The position numbers were made by a program, and so were the translations under genes. From the UHGV virus genome UHGV-0094961: 38,929 bases of DNA; one strand, 5' to 3'. The notes beneath the pieces were generated by a model. The model saw nothing but the letters and a program-made list of their open reading frames with translations. It ran no database searches and was not told the origin of the DNA. How positions within the stretch are numbered: position 1 is the first letter of the stretch; each line of letters begins with the position of its first letter. Positions 2,525 through 29,747 of this stretch are shown here, piece by piece. This DNA is from a virus.

Positions 2525-4993
2525 ATGATTAGCGCCCTGAATACGGTTGTAGTACCAGAGGAAGCACTGGTGAAACGCCAGCTGGAGCTCGAAGAGACCT
2601 ATAAGATTCGCGGAATCGAGCGGGCACGTAAGCTGATTACGGACGCATTGCAGAACGGCGGGATTATGAACCTGCCGATGACGCAGCGTATGCTCACCTC
2701 GGCATATGAGGTGGCTGCTGCCGCTATCGACGAGATGCGAAACGTCAAAGTCCCGGGCATTGGTGGTAAGTACCGCCGGTTCCTGCGCTTAGTCCCCTTG
2801 GATGTCCTGACCACACTGAGCCTGTGCACAATGTTTGAAGCGTTTAGCGTCGCCCCCGGCGAGTCTGCTAGTCGCCGCCAGACTGCGCAGGCGGTAATGT
2901 CCGCACTGGGCCGGAACGTGCAGTCAGAGCTACTGGCTCTGCAGTTACGCAACGTAGCCCCAGCGTACATGGACCGAGTATATGAGTATCTCACAGAGCG
3001 CCGTACGAAGTCCCCTACGCACATCCTGCGTACGCTCCGTGCCAGTGCCGAGAATGTGCACTATGGGCACGAGCCTTGGACCAATGCCCAGAACATCTCC
3101 GTAGGGCGTCTGCTGTGTGCCGCGGTGTTTGAGACTGGCTTGTTCCAGTGGAAGACAGGTAGCGGGAACCTGAGCATGCTCTACCCGGCTGATGACGTTA
3201 TGGGGGCCTTCCAGAAACTGGTGGAATCTGCCGACACTGTAACGATGAAGCCGCCTATGCTGGTCCCCCCGGTGCAGCACACCACTATGTGGGATGGTGG
3301 GTACCTTACTCCTATCGACAACCGCGGTACGTACCATAACTCGCACATCGACCGCTCCAGGCTGCGTGAAGTGGCGGAAGCATTTAAGTCCGCGGATGGC
3401 ATCAAGAAGGCGCTTAATAAGGCACAGGAAACCCCATACCGTATTAATAAGCGCATACTGGAACTGGTGCAAGAAGCACGGGCCCTGGGTATTGGGATAG
3501 GTATGCCCCGCTCAATACCGGAGCCGAAGCCTGAGTGGTACTTGGATGGTGTACCAAAAGAGAACTACACCGAAGAAGAACTGGACCGCTTCGGTGAGTG
3601 GAAGACGCGTATGTCCCTGTGGTACAGTGCTGACCGTAAGCGTGTGTCGCAACTACGCAGCCTTCTGACTACGTTGGAGATGGCAGAGGAATTCAAAGAT
3701 GAGAAAGCCCTGTACTTCCCGACTTGTGTGGACTGGCGCTACCGCCTGTACTTCAAGTCCTCGTTGCACCCGCAGGGTTCTGATTTGCAGAAGGCTCTGC
3801 TGGAATTCGGTAGAGGTAAACCTCTTGGAGAGAGAGGGTTGTTCTGGCTTAAAGTGCATGTCGCCACTTGCTTTGGTTATGACAAAACCCTATTCGAAGA
3901 CCGCGCAGATTGGGTGGATAAAAATATGGCAGTTGTCCGCTCAGTTGCAGAGAATCCATTTGATTCGGACGCTTTTAAGCAGGCCGATTCACCGTGGTGT
4001 TTCTTGGCAGCAGTGCTCGACCTGGTGGCTGCTCTGGATTCTCCGTGCCCAGAAGAGTACATCTCCAGAACTCCGGTTGCTATGGACGCCACAAACTCAG
4101 GTGGACAGCACCTCTCAGCGCTCCTGAGAGACCCTGTAGGCGGTCGTCTGACGAACCTGTACTGGGAAGGTAACGACAAGAAAGCGGACCTGTACATGGA
4201 CGTGAAGCGCCGCACGGATGAGAAGGTGATACTGGACCTGGACAAGGAGGATTTCGTTATCCAGAGCACGTACTGGAGAGAGAACGAAATCACCCGCAGC
4301 ATGACCAAGCACCCAAGTATGACCTACTTCTACAGCGCCACGGTGCGTAGCTGCAGCGACTACATCTTTGAAGGCGCTTGCGCTGAGGGATACGAGGGTA
4401 CCGATACTAACAGTCTGTGGAACCTGTCGTGCTACCTGGCACCGCGTATGCGCGCCGCTATAGAGGAGGCAAACCCCGCTGCTGCGGCAGTTATGGGGTA
4501 CTTGCAGAATCTCGCTAGACGCGTACCGGCAAGCCAGCACCTGCAGTGGTATACGCCGCTGGGCGGGCTCGTAATGAACCGTTACACGCAGCGTGAAGAA
4601 GTGCGTGTACGTATTGACTGCATGAACCTGTCAGCGGTACTGGTACACAACCGGGACTTCAAAACTTGTAACAAGCGCAAGGCAGCCTCCGGGATTGCCC
4701 CAAACTTTGTGCATAGCCTGGACAGTACGCACTTGATGATGGTGCTCTGCGCTGCGGAGGGGTTGGACATTGTGCCTATTCACGACTCGCTGGCTACTCA
4801 CGCAGCTGACGTCGACACTATGCATAGGCACATCCGTGAGCAGTTTGTGCGTCTATATGAAGAGAATGACCTGCTTGGCGATATTACTCGGGCAGCGGCA
4901 GCAGCCGGGGCAGACTTGACGGACCTGGACATGCCAGAGGTGGGCACTTTGGACATCCGGCAAGTGCTAGAATCCCCGTTCTTCTTCTGCTAA
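2525..4993 (+). CDS. single-subunit DNA-directed RNA polymerase (T7-like RNAP)
   Basis: 822 aa; PVAMDATNSGGQHLSALLRD (T7 motif DGSCSGIQHFSAMLRD) and PIHDSLATH (T7 HDSFGT); AAGGAG RBS 11 nt upstream. Confidence 0.9.
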   Translation: MISALNTVVVPEEALVKRQLELEETYKIRGIERARKLITDALQNGGIMNLPMTQRMLTSAYEVAAAAIDEMRNVKVPGIGGKYRRFLRLVPLDVLTTLSLCTMFEAFSVAPGESASRRQTAQAVMSALGRNVQSELLALQLRNVAPAYMDRVYEYLTERRTKSPTHILRTLRASAENVHYGHEPWTNAQNISVGRLLCAAVFETGLFQWKTGSGNLSMLYPADDVMGAFQKLVESADTVTMKPPMLVPPVQHTTMWDGGYLTPIDNRGTYHNSHIDRSRLREVAEAFKSADGIKKALNKAQETPYRINKRILELVQEARALGIGIGMPRSIPEPKPEWYLDGVPKENYTEEELDRFGEWKTRMSLWYSADRKRVSQLRSLLTTLEMAEEFKDEKALYFPTCVDWRYRLYFKSSLHPQGSDLQKALLEFGRGKPLGERGLFWLKVHVATCFGYDKTLFEDRADWVDKNMAVVRSVAENPFDSDAFKQADSPWCFLAAVLDLVAALDSPCPEEYISRTPVAMDATNSGGQHLSALLRDPVGGRLTNLYWEGNDKKADLYMDVKRRTDEKVILDLDKEDFVIQSTYWRENEITRSMTKHPSMTYFYSATVRSCSDYIFEGACAEGYEGTDTNSLWNLSCYLAPRMRAAIEEANPAAAAVMGYLQNLARRVPASQHLQWYTPLGGLVMNRYTQREEVRVRIDCMNLSAVLVHNRDFKTCNKRKAASGIAPNFVHSLDSTHLMMVLCAAEGLDIVPIHDSLATHAADVDTMHRHIREQFVRLYEENDLLGDITRAAAAAGADLTDLDMPEVGTLDIRQVLESPFFFC

Positions 4994-4998
4994 AAATT

Positions 4999-5017
4999 TA
5001 ATGTTACAGGAGTAGGA
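4999..5017 (+). promoter_or_regulatory. conserved 19-nt motif TAATGTTACAGGAGTAGGA (copy 1), candidate phage-RNAP promoter
   Basis: Exact 17-nt core ATGTTACAGGAGTAGGA present three times in window; this copy sits immediately after the RNAP gene, before the late module. Confidence 0.4.
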
Positions 5018-16237: not shown

Positions 16238-19200
16238 ATGGCTCAGTTTCTGAACCAAGAACCGAATCCACAGGAAAAGGATTCTGCTAAGGGCGCAACA
16301 CTTAAACCTGCGCCTGAGCGCGTAGATTGGAACGATGCCGGAGACAACGGCTTAAACGCACTGGAGCGTGCCTCCTTACTGGCGCAGGCCAAGACCCCAG
16401 CTACTACAGCCGGGGAGAGCTTTGCGTCTGGTATGGGTAACAGCATCATCGCCGCAGCTATCCGTAAGGCCTCTGCCCCGGCATTTGACCGGGACCAGAA
16501 CTTTAACGCCAAGCAGACTCTGAGCAGCGATACCAGGGCTAAGCTGTATGCTCCGAATCAGGAAGAGATTGAGTACCTGCACGACTCTGTATCGGTCGAG
16601 GATTACAACTACCGCATGCAGCAGATGCTTGAGCAACGCAACCGTGACCGCTTAATGGCTGACAACACGGTAGCCGGGTTCGCGGGTATGTTGGTGGGTG
16701 ATTCTCCGTTCATCCTGGCCCCGATGTCTGCCGCTGGTATTGCTGGCCGCGCAGGCTTAGCTGCACGGACTGCTATCCGCGCTGCTGACGTAGGCTCCGC
16801 ATTCTATGCGCAGGACCAACTGGGCCAGTCTGCTGCGGTAACTGCACTGGTAGCGGGCGTAGCTGGGTTGGACCAGCTCTGGGATATGTCTAGGGCTGCT
16901 AAAGCTGCTGCTAAGGCCCGTACTGGGCGTGAGCCTATGTTCGACCCAGAAGCGCCTACAACTCGTACAGCGAGGGACGCTAATGTTACAGGAGTAGGAG
17001 AGGGAGAGGAAATCCTTACTAAGACACTGGATGAAAGCATCCAAGTATCTAGAAACAATACCGCCTCCGTGAACATGAAAGCACAGCACGTAGTTCAGTT
17101 CTTGAAGAAGTCCGAACACTTAACAGCAGGCCAGAAGGCTATTCTGGACACGCTGGGCGATGCTGTAAATGACATTGATTTTAAACTGGTAGCAGGCTCC
17201 GCAAACCGCAGCCGCTACACTTACGCACAGCAAGATTTAGCTAAGCGTGGAGAGGTGTCTCTACGCGCACCTACGCGAGCTAATGGCAGCACATGGACTA
17301 CAGCAGGGGACGCACTGCGTGCTATGGATGCAGACACAAGCAGGGTAGCCGTGCACGAACTGATTCATGCCGCCACTGCGCGCGCCGTTGACAGTAACCC
17401 AGAGATTGCTAAGCGCCTGGATGAAGTGCGCGCTGTTATTGCAGCGGACTCCACCTTGACGCCGCGTATGCGGTATTACGCTAGTAATGTGCACGAGATG
17501 CTGGCAGGCTTAGGTGACAGCCCTGAGTGGGTTGAGCATCTGGCGCGGACGAAATCCCCAACCGGTAAGAGCATGCTCCGCCAACTGGGCGAGTACATCA
17601 TGAATGCCCTGGGCATCAAGGCCAAAGGTTCTGCCTTGGAAGATGTCTTGGATGCGTACGAGGACGCCGTTAAGTGGACAGCTAAGGATTATGCAGACCA
17701 AGCCCAGAGCTTCCGTAGTGAAGCCTTCCAGGACCTGGCGGGCAGCACTACCCTAAACGAGGCTAAGGGTGCCCAAGCTATGCTGGATGGCGCTAAGAAG
17801 AAGCTCTCTACTATGTTTGCCCTGTACGATAACATCGCTCAAGGCAATGAAGACTTGGCTAAACTGCTAGTGTCGGATGCGTCCGCAGTAGGCGGCCGTC
17901 GCCCGTCTGTAGTGGACTTCAAGCGCAACCTCACTTTGGAGATGGACGCCAGCGCTAGCGTAGTGGAAGACGCTATCCTGGGCGCGTTGAAGGATAAGGG
18001 TGTAGGTTTCTCTGAGCGCTTCTTCCATCGGAGCAAGTTCCGCGCTGAGCGGGCTGCACTGGAAGACCGCCTGAGCAAGTACCTGGATGCTGCCTACAGT
18101 GCTGATGTAAACGGCCGAGCTGTTCCCGTACCGGATGTAGAGATTGCCCCACTGGTTGACGCCTATCGCCGCTCTGGCTGGGCAGGCAAGTGGCACGAGC
18201 ATATGCTCAATGCTGGTCTGGTGGATGATGGTGCGTTGGTTAAATCCGATTACTACTTCCCGCGTCAGTACAGCTACGACAAGATGCGCCAAGGTATTGC
18301 GCAGGGTAACACTCTGGACGACTACCGCGCCCTGTTCAGGTCCGCCCTGCGGGACGTGTACCCGAGCATGGAGTCAGAGGTAGTGCAGCGTGTTGCAAAG
18401 GAGATGGTTGACGGTATCTACAACGGCCGTGCAGGGCAGTCCGGCCCGATGTGGAAGCAGCTGATTAACGGCATGGGTAACGACGAGGTCGTTATGGCTA
18501 TGCGTAGCGCTGGTGTAGATGAATCTGCAATCCAGAGTTTCCTGGCTGGTAACGTACGCGAATCCGGTAGCACGTCCCCTGCGCGGAACCTGCGTCAGCG
18601 TACTCGGTTCAACATGGACAAAGAGTATCTGGTGAACGGTAAGAGCATGCGCATGCAGGACCTGATGGATACTGATGTAGCCAAGGTTATGCACGGGTAC
18701 ACTAACCGTATGTCTGGGCGTGTAGGCATGGCCTATGCAGGCGTACAGGGCCTGGGCCAGCTAGCTAAGATGATTGATGAGTCTAAGCACGCACTGGCGG
18801 ATTCCGCTAAGTGGGAGAAGACAGTCAATGACACCATCGACTTTATCCTGGGTGGGGCGCCTGCTGACGCCGGACAGCTTCCGGATTTGCTGCGTGCAGC
18901 CGGGAACATGGCTAACGCCACCATGCTTAAGAACTCCGGCCTGTATCAGCTGACTGACACTGCCCTGGCTATGAAGGAGTTCGGTATGGCTAGAGTGCTG
19001 CGTAGTATGCGCGACCAGCCTTGGTTCAAGGAAGGTGCCGTAGCTATCAAGACTCCGGATATGGCTACCCGTCTAGACACTGTACTGCGAGGTAATATCC
19101 AGAAGGAGATGCGCTTCCGCTGGTTGAATACGTACGCCGACGATAACCTGGACCTGACCCGTCAGGCCTCTTGGTTCAATGTAACCCAGAACGTTGGGCA

Positions 19201-27418: not shown

Positions 27419-27437
27419 TGATGTTACAGGAGTAGGA
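27419..27437 (+). promoter_or_regulatory. conserved motif TGATGTTACAGGAGTAGGA (copy 3), candidate phage-RNAP promoter near genome left end
   Basis: Same 17-nt core in the non-coding terminal region; no start codon follows. Confidence 0.35.
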
Positions 27438-27705: not shown

Positions 27706-28260
27706 ATGTTACCATCTAGTCGGGCTACGGCTAAAGCCACTGGTAGTACATACTACTACACAGGGAAGCACTGTAAGTACCAGCACACGGCAAAGCGCCT
27801 CACCAGTTCAGGGGAGTGCTCCGAGTGCTTTAAGATTAGGAGTACCAGCCCAGCTACTAAGGAGCGTATGCGGGGGTACCATAAGGTTTATCAGGTACGT
27901 AAGGCAGAGGCCTTGAGAGAGTACCGTAAGACACGCCGACCTAAGCACATTATGACAGAGGAGCAATTACAGCGTAAGGTTCGCCACAATGCGCGATACC
28001 GTGCTGCGCGTACTCAATCCGTACCCTCATGGTATGGCGAGTGGGGTGAGTTTGTTATGTTGGAGGCTATCGCTTTAGCAGCCGAGAGGGCGGAGTGTAC
28101 TGGCATAGCGTGGCATATTGACCATATGCTACCGCTAAAGGCTAAAGAGGTGTGCGGCTTACACTGTGCGGGGAACATTCAGGTGATACCCGCAACGCTT
28201 AATACACATAAGTGTAACAGGCTGCTATTCACGGAGCCGTTGGGGTGGCTAAAGGCATAA
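27706..28260 (+). CDS. HNH endonuclease with N-terminal Cys-rich motif
   Basis: Start set at ATG 27706 (AAGGAG RBS 6 nt upstream) inside track ORF 27637..28260; C-terminal WHIDHMLPL...GLHCAGNIQVIPATLNTHKCN is an HNH-type motif; N-terminal YYYTGKHCKYQH...GECSECF looks like a zinc-binding motif. Confidence 0.6.
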   Translation: MLPSSRATAKATGSTYYYTGKHCKYQHTAKRLTSSGECSECFKIRSTSPATKERMRGYHKVYQVRKAEALREYRKTRRPKHIMTEEQLQRKVRHNARYRAARTQSVPSWYGEWGEFVMLEAIALAAERAECTGIAWHIDHMLPLKAKEVCGLHCAGNIQVIPATLNTHKCNRLLFTEPLGWLKA

Positions 28261-28266
28261 ACTTGA

Positions 28267-28309
28267 GGTAATACAGTACTATAAATGCTGTATTACCTTT
28301 TTTTTTTTT
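28267..28309 (+). terminator. rho-independent terminator
   Basis: Perfect 10-bp stem GGTAATACAG / CTGTATTACC with 11-nt loop followed by 12 T, directly after the HNH stop codon. Confidence 0.75.
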
Positions 28310-28446
28310 ATAAAAAGTGCTTGCTTTTTTAAATCTGCTAGGTGTATATTTATCCCATCGAAAGCGATACGGTCTACCGGGTAGCTCTAGATTCCAGAGT
28401 CAACTGGATAAGTAGACAGCCTGATAAGTCATATGAAAAACAGGTA

Positions 28447-28475
28447 TTGACAATAGCAGTAAACGCTTTTATAGT
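28447..28475 (+). promoter_or_regulatory. near-consensus sigma70 promoter (TTGACA-17-TATAGT)
   Basis: Consensus -35, 17-bp spacer, -10 with one mismatch to TATAAT; in ORF-poor early region. Confidence 0.45.
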
Positions 28476-28724
28476 TTGAACCATGTTGCGGAGCAGTGTA
28501 GCGCCTAAAGGTGCTCTGACCACTAACCCTAGATACATGATAGTAGTAAGCGTGCCGGACGTTATCACCGGGGTTCTGAGACAAACCACACTGTCGAGGC
28601 GAGAGCAGCTCGCTCCTCTGAATCGAGGGAACAAGGCGCGGAGTGTATCCCGCAAAGAGCATATAACATAGCGTAGCAGTAACAAGGCTGCGCTAGATTA
28701 TGTTCTCTGAGAGGTAAGAAGATT

Positions 28725-28922
28725 ATGCGCAAAGCAAAGCGTTTAGCTTTACGGCGGAATATGCAGTTATCACTGAATCCCACCGACAACGTGCCACTCA
28801 CTGTGAAGCCAAGTAAACAAGGCCTGAGCTGTGAGCACAGGGTGAGAGGTAAGCAAAAGCAACGTGCTGGCAGTAAACAACCTTCGGGGTGGTCTACTAT
28901 GAATGCACAGTTCGGACACTAA
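28725..28922 (+). CDS. hypothetical small basic protein
   Basis: 65 aa, Lys/Arg-rich; GAGAGGTAAGAAG upstream of ATG; only RBS-supported ORF in the island. Confidence 0.3.
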   Translation: MRKAKRLALRRNMQLSLNPTDNVPLTVKPSKQGLSCEHRVRGKQKQRAGSKQPSGWSTMNAQFGH

Positions 28923-28927
28923 TTACA

Positions 28928-28959
28928 GCCTATAGCATCCTATGGGGTGCTATGTGAAG
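28928..28959 (+). promoter_or_regulatory. conserved hairpin motif copy A (GCCTATAGCATCC-TATG-GGGTGCTATGTGAAG)
   Basis: 9-bp stem (one G-U wobble) with 4-nt loop, followed by GTGAA; 39 nt upstream of ATG 28998; covaries with copy B. Confidence 0.4.
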
Positions 28960-28997
28960 TAATTCGTAAAGTAAACAACCAATCAAAGGGGTGCATT

Positions 28998-29582
28998 ATG
29001 ACTAATTCCACCAATTCAACAGGTAAAGTATTCAAGCTCACCGCTGCTGGCAGCATTCGTAAAGCGCTGGGCGACGTAGTGGAAGCAAAGCGTAACATCA
29101 CTATCAGCGCGCTCTTCCACGGCCTGATTAGCAGCAACGTATCATGGGCTACGGATATGCAGCGTAGCGATGCCGCTGACTTCGATATGGTGCTGCGTAC
29201 GCTGTTGCCTATCAAGCTCAACAAGGAGTCCGGCAAATATGGGTTCAACGCTAAGAAGTGCTATGTGTCGGCTGAAAAGCTGGGTATCGAACTGGACACT
29301 ATGCGTCTGGACTACAAACAAGCTGACAAGCAAGGCCGCGAAGTAATCGTAGCGAGGTTTTATAGCTCCTGTATGGCCCTGTACGCCGCCGAAGCAGAGC
29401 AGGTGAAGAATGACGCACTGGATGCCGATGCAGTGCGCCTGCAAGCGCTGGGGCGCGTTAAAAACGCTATTAAGAAGGCTAAAGAGACTGGCGTAAGCGA
29501 TGCTGACCTCGTGTCTATGCTGGTATCGCAAGGCGTGGACGTACGCGCTGTACTGGACGCAACTTTGAAGGCAGCGGCATGA
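28998..29582 (+). CDS. hypothetical early protein
   Basis: Start at ATG 28998 (AAAGGGG RBS) within track ORF 28947..29582; 194 aa; no recognisable motif. Confidence 0.5.
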   Translation: MTNSTNSTGKVFKLTAAGSIRKALGDVVEAKRNITISALFHGLISSNVSWATDMQRSDAADFDMVLRTLLPIKLNKESGKYGFNAKKCYVSAEKLGIELDTMRLDYKQADKQGREVIVARFYSSCMALYAAEAEQVKNDALDADAVRLQALGRVKNAIKKAKETGVSDADLVSMLVSQGVDVRAVLDATLKAAA

Positions 29583-29710: not shown

Positions 29711-29716
29711 TGGCAA

Positions 29717-29747
29717 GCCTATAGCGTCCTACGGGACGCTATGTGAA
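29717..29747 (+). promoter_or_regulatory. conserved hairpin motif copy B (GCCTATAGCGTCC-TACG-GGACGCTATGTGAAT)
   Basis: Perfect 9-bp stem, 4-nt loop; 25 nt upstream of ATG 29772; two compensatory substitutions relative to copy A. Confidence 0.4.

Follow-up and report, generated by a model that had tools for sequence, protein, structure and literature searches.

A conserved, structured RNA leader at the head of the early transcription unit of KP34-like Klebsiella phages

Why does a phage keep, ahead of its early genes, an interval that holds only short, overlapping open reading frames (ORFs)? This question is raised by positions 28261 to 28997 of the virus genome UHGV-0094961, whose 38,929 nucleotides were analysed whole and are called the window here. 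An earlier note, made from the letters alone, had described this island as ORF-poor, with an intrinsic terminator and a sigma70 promoter, and had proposed that it encodes a regulatory non-coding RNA or a small basic protein. We found that the window is the circularly permuted genome of a KP34-like Klebsiella phage (Drulisvirus, Autographiviridae), which carries all of its long ORFs on the + strand, and that the island is the head of its early transcription unit, consisting, in order, of the terminator of an HNH-endonuclease cassette, two tandem sigma70 promoters, a 242-nt leader, the gene for a 65-residue protein (ORF65) and an intercistronic hairpin. We hold this anatomy of the whole island to be very probable. 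The region from 27600 to 29600 matches hundreds of Klebsiella phage records, and its homologue in phage KpV41 lies 1.3-1.7 kb from the left terminal repeat, which places the island at the very start of the early region. We compared 42 loci, the relatives being drawn from 40 IMG/VR loci and phage RCIP0036, and found that the stretch from the genome-end block to the conserved early gene at 28998..29582 is mosaic. The new result is the leader; the promoter, the terminator and ORF65 are ordinary or already catalogued.

The stronger of the two promoters has its predicted start at A28483. Part of the non-coding RNA proposal held, in that the transcript begins with a conserved structured RNA; this RNA is the 5' leader of ORF65 and the early mRNA, and not a discrete small-RNA gene. 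Its parts are listed here.

28483..28724, + strand: untranslated 5' leader of the early mRNA, 242 nt, with no conserved ORF
28500..28515, + strand: hairpin P0 (AGCGCC-UAAA-GGUGCU), read from sequence only, followed by the block CUGACCACUAACCCUAGAUACA, which is kept across leader types
28555..28571, + strand: hairpin P1 (CCGG/CCGG, 9-nt loop), with a compensatory G-C to C-G change in the LIMElight/L095 group
28572..28595, + strand: H-type pseudoknot of stems S1 (GGUU 28572-75/AACC 28584-87) and S2 (GACA 28580-83/UGUC 28592-95), predicted from covariation
28598..28614, + strand: hairpin P3 (GGCGAG-AGCAG-CUCGCU), 5/6 pairs covarying
28615..28628, + strand: hairpin P4 (CCUC-UGAAUC-GAGG), abutting P3, with 100% of alignment cells paired and 2/4 pairs covarying
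28630..28636, + strand: single-stranded AACAAGG, kept in nearly all leader types
28638..28653, + strand: hairpin P5 (GCGG/CCGC), in type I leaders only, from alignment and covariation
28656..28708, + strand: long interrupted hairpin P6 with an invariant internal loop (5' UAACA/3' GAUUA), a candidate ribonuclease III (RNase III)-type site, 7/18 pairs covarying

Is this stretch an RNA rather than a set of overlooked genes? The description of the island as ORF-poor proved accurate, since only short overlapping ORFs occur and, in diverse relatives, all six frames of the leader are interrupted: among six to seven diverse type I members, the type to which the window belongs, each frame contains 2-5 stops on the + strand and at least one on the - strand. 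We rejected three candidate ORFs. A leaderless ORF at the ATG of the predicted +1 (28483) is 62, 44 or 24 residues long in different relatives, and a minus-strand ORF of 103 residues is not maintained, all minus-strand frames containing stops in the seven type I leaders that were checked. A short upstream ORF (GUG at ~28644) follows AACAAGG in type I only and varies in length, and its changes compensate one another in P5, so that we read it as RNA structure. The nucleotide sequence itself is strongly conserved: 13 type I genomes are 95-100% identical over 28558-28707, and the same sliding windows give 74-90% for ORF65 and 76-97% for the next gene. Divergent copies of the leader were found upstream of ORF65 homologues in Erwinia phage Zoomie, Pantoea phage LIMElight and related contigs.

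The earlier note had suggested a covariation analysis against relatives, and this revealed compensatory changes in the leader helices. In an alignment of 16 type I sequences under a six-helix model (alignment A3), for which 500 shuffles and slid models served as controls, 96.6% of cells were paired and 13 of 39 pairs were altered on both sides, compared to 5.2 ± 1.4 after shuffling (reached by 0/500) and 0-2 in slid models. Each helix of the six-helix model contained at least one compensatory pair, and RNAalifold independently scored 14 of 38 pairs as compensatory. Searches with a covariance model of this alignment brought weak matches, over the full length, in the 'other' Drulisvirus leader type, and by inspection the leader types have a common core: an H-type pseudoknot in which S1 crosses S2, the abutting hairpins P3 and P4, and then (U)AACAAGG. 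When this core was aligned for 29 distinct sequences of several leader types (alignment A5), 95.5% of cells paired and 15 of 21 pairs were altered on both sides (9.9 ± 1.4 after shuffling, 0/500; 2-5 in slid models). Both stems of the pseudoknot took part, with covariation at 4/6 pairs of S1 (from type II and distant members) and 4/5 pairs of S2. Adding three divergent contigs that were absent from the definition of the structure (alignment A7) gave 14 of 17 pairs altered on both sides, again unmatched by any of 500 shuffles, and left S2 100% paired with 5/5 pairs covarying. These three later-found contigs, together with a third sequence type, keep all helices and contribute new compensatory pairs, and the fold is retained across sequence types that are ~60-80% identical. 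Cells with G-U far outnumber those with A-C (47:3 and 34:2), and therefore the structure is that of + strand RNA. Within the pseudoknot, the stretches CUGAG (28576-80) and CGAG (28595-98) are near-invariant. Taken together, the comparison shows a leader predicted to fold into a conserved + strand RNA domain composed of the pseudoknot, hairpins, AACAAGG and a long hairpin that abuts the ribosome-binding site.

Several further observations concern the outline of this domain. Upstream of the pseudoknot, all leader types carry the block (U)UGACGACCAANCCUAGAYA (28519-28540), preceded by the hairpin at 28500-28515, and the structured leader may extend further 5' of the pseudoknot core. In one locus (L093, 1255-1272) an extra hairpin, GGC-GUAACA-GCC, is inserted inside the P5 loop, a variable insertion of the kind typical of structured RNAs. 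Type I leaders of Drulisvirus contain AACAAGG a second time, in the apical loop of P6 (28681-28687, GUAACAAGGC), which is not the case in Zoomie and LIMElight. We also considered an RfaH ops element, given that the type II P4 loop CGGTAGTGCA resembles GGCGGTAGnnTG, and rejected it by eye; its A varies, and the type I loop UGAAUC does not contain it.

The leader is widespread among phages. When 60 related loci were searched with a profile of the core, each of the 60 proved to have a single + strand copy ahead of its first early ORF, and T7M of the T7 group had none. Searching the phage collection gave 69 records with the type I leader and 174 with the type II core (roughly 240 together). The type II records include KP34 and, among others, phages that infect Pectobacterium, Escherichia, Shigella and Erwinia, and almost all matches have no annotated feature beneath them. 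Rfam 15 yielded no match at the gathering score for the window, at E values up to 10 for the leader, or at E values up to 1 for type II and distant loci, and a scan for transfer and transfer-messenger RNAs found nothing in the leader. Pattern scans of metagenomes and 185,579 bacterial genomes returned almost only chance matches after nhmmer filtering, with no bacterial homologue confirmed, and the literature that we searched contains no description of the element. The leader is thus a well-supported RNA family absent from Rfam and the literature searched, and its alignment is a ready seed for a new family. KP34-like phages (Drulisvirus and relatives on Pectobacterium, Pantoea, Erwinia, Shigella and E. 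coli) are widely isolated, many of the records coming from clinical Klebsiella pneumoniae hosts, and their early expression is essentially unstudied. An RNA domain that is more conserved than the genes around it and is carried by all predicted early transcripts offers an obvious point of control within the first minutes of infection, and should be kept intact in phage engineering.

What could such a domain control? The reading that we prefer, tentatively and with clearly less than even confidence, is one of processivity or antitermination in cis: the domain would act on the early transcripts that carry it by binding the elongating host RNA polymerase or a host factor, making early transcription processive and resistant to termination in the manner of HK022 put, lambda nut, rrn boxA or the Bacillus EAR element, and the host polymerase would read on to the phage RNA polymerase gene.

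2525-4993: phage RNA polymerase gene

This gene lies ~17-20 kb downstream of the early promoters, and a scan of the window found no strong phage-polymerase promoter between the two, and therefore the host polymerase must cover the ~17-20 kb. The first cistron after the element comes from at least four unrelated protein families across loci, which argues in favour of an operon-level role linked to transcription. The element is also a single, promoter-proximal, structured RNA that heads a long unit, which is the position expected of a put- or EAR-like RNA. The put RNAs of phage HK022 and the EAR element of Bacillus are RNAs that act in cis to make RNA polymerase resistant to termination, and they are likewise promoter-proximal, structured, built of abutting stem-loops and placed at the head of a long unit; the KP34-group element differs from both in size and in having a pseudoknot, so that the analogy is one of position and logic only.

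A more specific form of the preferred reading is possible, and we give it slightly less credence than the reading as a whole. Here the leader would represent a class of phage cis-acting RNA, not described before, that reprograms the host RNA polymerase either directly, as put does, or via a host factor. The host polymerase, transcribing ~20 kb to the phage polymerase gene, could in this way help to pull in the DNA, and the leader would be the KP34-group counterpart of the boxA found in early leaders of the T7 group. T7M (L042) carries a boxA-like sequence, CGCTCTTTAACAA, at 779-791, between promoter A3 and the RNase III site R0.3, which matches the rrn boxA at 12 of 13 positions; this early leader thus has a near-perfect boxA at the equivalent place, whereas the leader of the window has none, a contrast that also favours a role linked to transcription. 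A search of 28300-29000 for the boxA consensus (U/C)GCUCUUUAACAA with up to 3 mismatches found no match, and we therefore rejected a boxA or nut site in the leader. If the domain does confer processivity, this would explain how phiKMV/KP34-type phages express an RNA polymerase gene that lies far from the early promoters.

A number of observations weigh against this preferred reading or weaken its basis. No convincing + strand intrinsic terminator was found between the leader and the polymerase gene; with none to overcome, antitermination would have to act against Rho or pausing. The distance from the element to the last predicted start site is mostly 84-140 nt (median 117 nt) and that to the first ATG 49-179 nt, which speaks for a link to transcription, but the argument is weak, since both spacings vary. 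The position of the long hairpin, directly against the ribosome-binding site, would be explained just as well by control of translation or processing. At the level of structure, stem S1 in the register of type I, to which the window belongs, is backed by just two consistent variants, identified by eye, and the sequences fall into few clades, so that independent compensatory events are fewer than the cell counts suggest. The literature searched contains no transcript map for these phages.

Control of the translation and/or stability of the first cistron is nearly as likely as processivity in cis, and is itself doubtful. Here the pseudoknot would bind a host or phage protein, and the long hairpin would be cut by RNase III or would mask and unmask the Shine-Dalgarno sequence. 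The strongest point in its favour is hairpin P6 (28656-28708), which ends immediately 5' of the ORF65 Shine-Dalgarno sequence, has a predicted free energy of -26.1 kcal/mol (z = -4.98), consists of 4+6+9 bp with internal loops, and covaries. Its architecture is the same in Zoomie and LIMElight, a comparable hairpin occurs in a type IIb locus (L012), and in the other leader types a long hairpin of different sequence stands directly before the first ribosome-binding site, so that such a hairpin is present in every leader type. The protein downstream is small and very basic, like many RNA-binding autoregulators. Comparable leader controls include the lambda N leader, T7 R0.3, the T4 gene 32 pseudoknot and the ribosomal-protein leaders of S15 and S4. 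The lambda N leader, in which nutL and a hairpin sensitive to RNase III precede the small basic N protein, resembles the present one in being an early-promoter leader of more than 200 nt with small structured elements, a large hairpin beside the ribosome-binding site and a first protein that is small and rich in Arg/Lys (N there, ORF65 here). It differs in that no boxA was found and no boxB was identified here, that the two have no sequence similarity, and that the first cistron in KP34-like loci is not always a basic protein. The variety of first cistrons argues against autoregulation by ORF65, which we accordingly disfavour. In addition, the conserved core lies at a changing distance from the start codon (the 49-179 nt given above), with variable inserts between them, and its loops are conserved far more strictly than a merely stabilising hairpin would require.

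Both the preferred reading and control of translation leave room for processing of the early mRNA. P6 has the form of an RNase III site of T7 early mRNA, an interrupted hairpin of ~20 bp that adjoins a ribosome-binding site, and a second kind of hairpin follows ORF65.

28927..28958, + strand: conserved 32-nt motif AGCCTATAGCATCCTATGGGGTGCTATGTGAA, within an extended intercistronic hairpin of ~28921-28964; a second copy lies at 29716..29747

Both copies of this motif fold into extended hairpins, and the differences between the copies compensate one another in the inner as well as the outer stems. The motif was called a putative phage promoter by Eriksson et al. (PMC4411677) and was not used by the KP34 RNA polymerase in vitro (Lu et al., 2019; PMC6834552). 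These motifs are probably intercistronic RNA hairpins and may act as RNase III sites similar to those of T7 early mRNA. Under the preferred reading, P6, beside the ribosome-binding site, and the hairpins of the 32-nt motif would serve as RNase III-type processing or stabilising sites, as in T7. The T7 sites (R0.3, R0.5 and others) are interrupted hairpins of ~20 bp in untranslated or intercistronic positions next to ribosome-binding sites, and they recur in the genome with a common consensus, as the 32-nt motif does; there is no sequence similarity, and the likeness lies in predicted fold and position.

A riboswitch is unlikely. The pseudoknot would then be an aptamer for a host metabolite or ion and the hairpin adjacent to the ribosome-binding site its expression platform, for which the size (~75-90 nt) and position in the 5' untranslated region, the near-invariant unpaired nucleotides and an A-rich third loop (UAAAAGAAUA in type II) would all be typical or suitable, and a long-range helix, formed as an alternative in the minimum-free-energy fold, competes with P1 and P5. 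The preQ1 and SAM-II riboswitches, as well as the T4 gene 32 and rpsO pseudoknots, also have, in a 5' untranslated region, an H-type pseudoknot whose crossing strand is A-rich; the leader differs from them in having no covariance-model match and in possessing two extra obligatory hairpins and AACAAGG. No Rfam riboswitch model matches even at E values up to 10, type I leaders have ACAC or AUAUAA in place of the A-rich loop, the distance to the presumed expression platform varies, and no homologue was confirmed in the bacterial genomes scanned.

Slightly less likely again is an RNA that acts in trans, released by processing at P6 as a stable RNA of ~200-230 nt that would serve as a decoy, a sponge or an anti-defence agent; this corresponds to the regulatory or anti-host RNA of the earlier note. 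The very high sequence conservation would suit such a role, and the T7 early leader is released by RNase III cleavage at R0.3, according to the annotation of the T7M record. However, we found no terminator-like site or defined 3' end between 28483 and either ORF65 or the next gene, and the transcript runs into an ORF led by a ribosome-binding site, which is not how a stand-alone small-RNA gene is organised. Nor did we identify any complementarity, target or similarity to known small-RNA families.

That there is no functional RNA at all, and that the conservation reflects a DNA-level element, a coding frame or one block spread by recent recombination, is very improbable: the region is clearly mosaic and the ATG exactly at the predicted +1 would in principle allow a leaderless mRNA, but the inconsistent length of that ORF, the stops in every leader frame, the compensatory changes and excess of G-U over A-C, which require + strand RNA structure, and the retention of the fold across divergent types all speak against it.

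Where do the transcripts that carry this leader begin? Two promoters precede it.

28447..28475, + strand: sigma70 promoter TTGACA-17-TATAGT, homologue of T7 A2, predicted +1 at A28483, 11/12 consensus match
28321..28350, + strand: weak sigma70 promoter TTGCTT-18-TATATT, homologue of T7 A1, predicted +1 near 28357, from a three-way alignment

The first of these was recognised in the earlier note, and its position and sequence are as described there; the second, A1-like and weaker, was overlooked. The A2-like promoter is the sole match of at least 11/12 on both strands of the 38.9-kb window. Such a match alone proves little, because 0.22 are expected by chance per window under a first-order Markov model, and the promoter becomes credible through its homology and positional conservation. 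Positions 28389-28466 share ~89% identity with the sequence ahead of A2 and its -35 hexamer in T7, T3 and more than 200 relatives (measured over alignments of 65-78 nt), and the -35 hexamer coincides with the annotated A2 -35 in the T7M record. In the three-way alignment, both hexamers of the upstream promoter align with the annotated A1 hexamers of T7M. The two pairs therefore resemble those of T7 and T3 in the alignment of their hexamers and in their equal spacers of 18 nt (A1) and 17 nt (A2), and also lie near the left end of the genome ahead of the first early gene. They differ in that their carrier is a Slopekvirinae phage without other nucleotide similarity to T7, that no A3 homologue is present, and that the sequence downstream of the -35 is unrelated to T7.

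Among the 42 loci, 37 have one match of at least 10/12 to the sigma70 consensus in the interval and five have none at that threshold. The A1/A2-type cassette occurs in 7 loci; the remaining 35 comprise 30 with a single TTGACAccgcgaagaacataagcTAGATT match and the five without any match of at least 10/12. The TAGATT promoter and the following TTGACAagttc...TTAGAT correspond to sigma70 promoters predicted for the group by Eriksson et al. (2015; PMC4411677). A promoter cassette of ~170 bp (window 28311-28482; T7M 425-615) is thus common to Studiervirinae and a minority of the Drulisvirus loci, which implies that it has moved between phage subfamilies and that such subfamilies exchange regulatory modules. 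The piece upstream of A2 contains a direct repeat, GATAAGT...GATAAGT.

The gene that follows the leader had been proposed as a small basic protein, and the next gene is shared by all relatives.

28709..28718, + strand: Shine-Dalgarno region of ORF65, GAGAGGUAAG, from sequence
28725..28922, + strand: ORF65, a Lys/Arg-rich early protein of 65 residues (phrog_32970, homologue of KpV41 gp01), from profile match and conservation
28998..29582, + strand: next early gene, 194 residues, phrog_5277, function unassigned, present in all relatives

The frame at 28725..28922 and its Shine-Dalgarno sequence (GAGAGG) are as the earlier note gave them, and ORF65 is a real gene under purifying selection; as a protein it had already been catalogued, with no function assigned. 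It is intact and exactly 65 residues long in 12 of 12 relatives with the same leader type, at nucleotide identities down to 70%. The ratio of nonsynonymous to synonymous substitution rates (dN/dS) is 0.06-0.16, with dS at 1-2.8 and hence saturated, and the differences fall on the three codon positions as 646/388/1557. ORF65 matches phrog_32970 over residues 1-65 of the 65-position profile (E 4.2e-45) and, more weakly and in its C-terminal half, phrog_6352; no Pfam or PDB relative was found. Its counterpart in KpV41, gp01 (198 nt, 65 residues), is annotated as 'hypothetical protein' only, and homologues occur in LIMElight, Zoomie and more distant contigs. Relatives without ORF65 carry a 71-residue allele (phrog_6352) with a common C-terminal motif, VRGKxKxKGSSKxPxGW..QFGH. 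The two alleles of the first protein (65 residues, MRKAKR...; 71 residues, MKYREKL...) have unrelated N-terminal halves, and each has its own leader subtype. In type II leaders (L003, L011 and others), the sequence UUAACUUUGAGAGG before the gp1 ATG closely resembles the 'epsilon' enhancer of T7 gene 10 (UUAACUUUAAGAAGGAG).

Upstream of the promoters lie an ORF, a terminator and, further to the left, a promoter of the phage polymerase.

27419..27434, + strand: exact copy of the strong KP34 phage-polymerase promoter S2, TGATGTTACAGGAGTA, upstream of the HNH ORF, by pattern match
27706..28260, + strand: HNH-type endonuclease ORF, 184 residues from ATG, matching phrog_1035 'endonuclease VII' (E 1.4e-20)
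28265..28309, + strand: intrinsic terminator with a 14-bp stem, a 7-nt loop and a T-run of at least 10

The earlier note had taken the ORF at 27706..28260 for the first early gene, which did not hold. It is an HNH homing endonuclease and a mobile, unconserved insertion, as indicated by its profile match together with its patchy presence among close relatives; no Pfam match was found at E values up to 0.01. The terminator lies within two bases of where the earlier note had placed it (stem 28265-28299, T-run 28300-28309), and it belongs to this cassette rather than to the early unit. The HNH ORF and the terminator occur together in 4 of the 42 loci (the window, L001, L013 and L033), and the terminator is found only where the ORF is. 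Because of this co-occurrence, the terminator would most simply end transcription of the mobile endonuclease cassette; we infer that it may also insulate the early promoters.

The KP34 polymerase has experimentally defined strong promoter sequences S1 and S2 (PMC6834552). The copy at 27419..27434 is identical to S2, with one mismatch to S1, and its place at the left end is like that of phiOL in T7. Matches to the strong promoters occur in the window only at 4999..5014, directly 3' of the phage polymerase gene, at 16981..16996 and at 27419..27434, and a phage-polymerase promoter inside the leader was rejected on this basis.

The loci contain two hot spots for the insertion of homing endonucleases. 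One lies upstream of the early promoters, where at least two unrelated HNH genes occur; in L012, a different HNH gene occupies the same insertion site as in the window (L012 interval 25-416). The other is the 3' end of gp1, where two loci (L018 and L039) carry an HNH/AP2-like ORF of 117 residues that ends in the last codons of gp1 (GQFGR).

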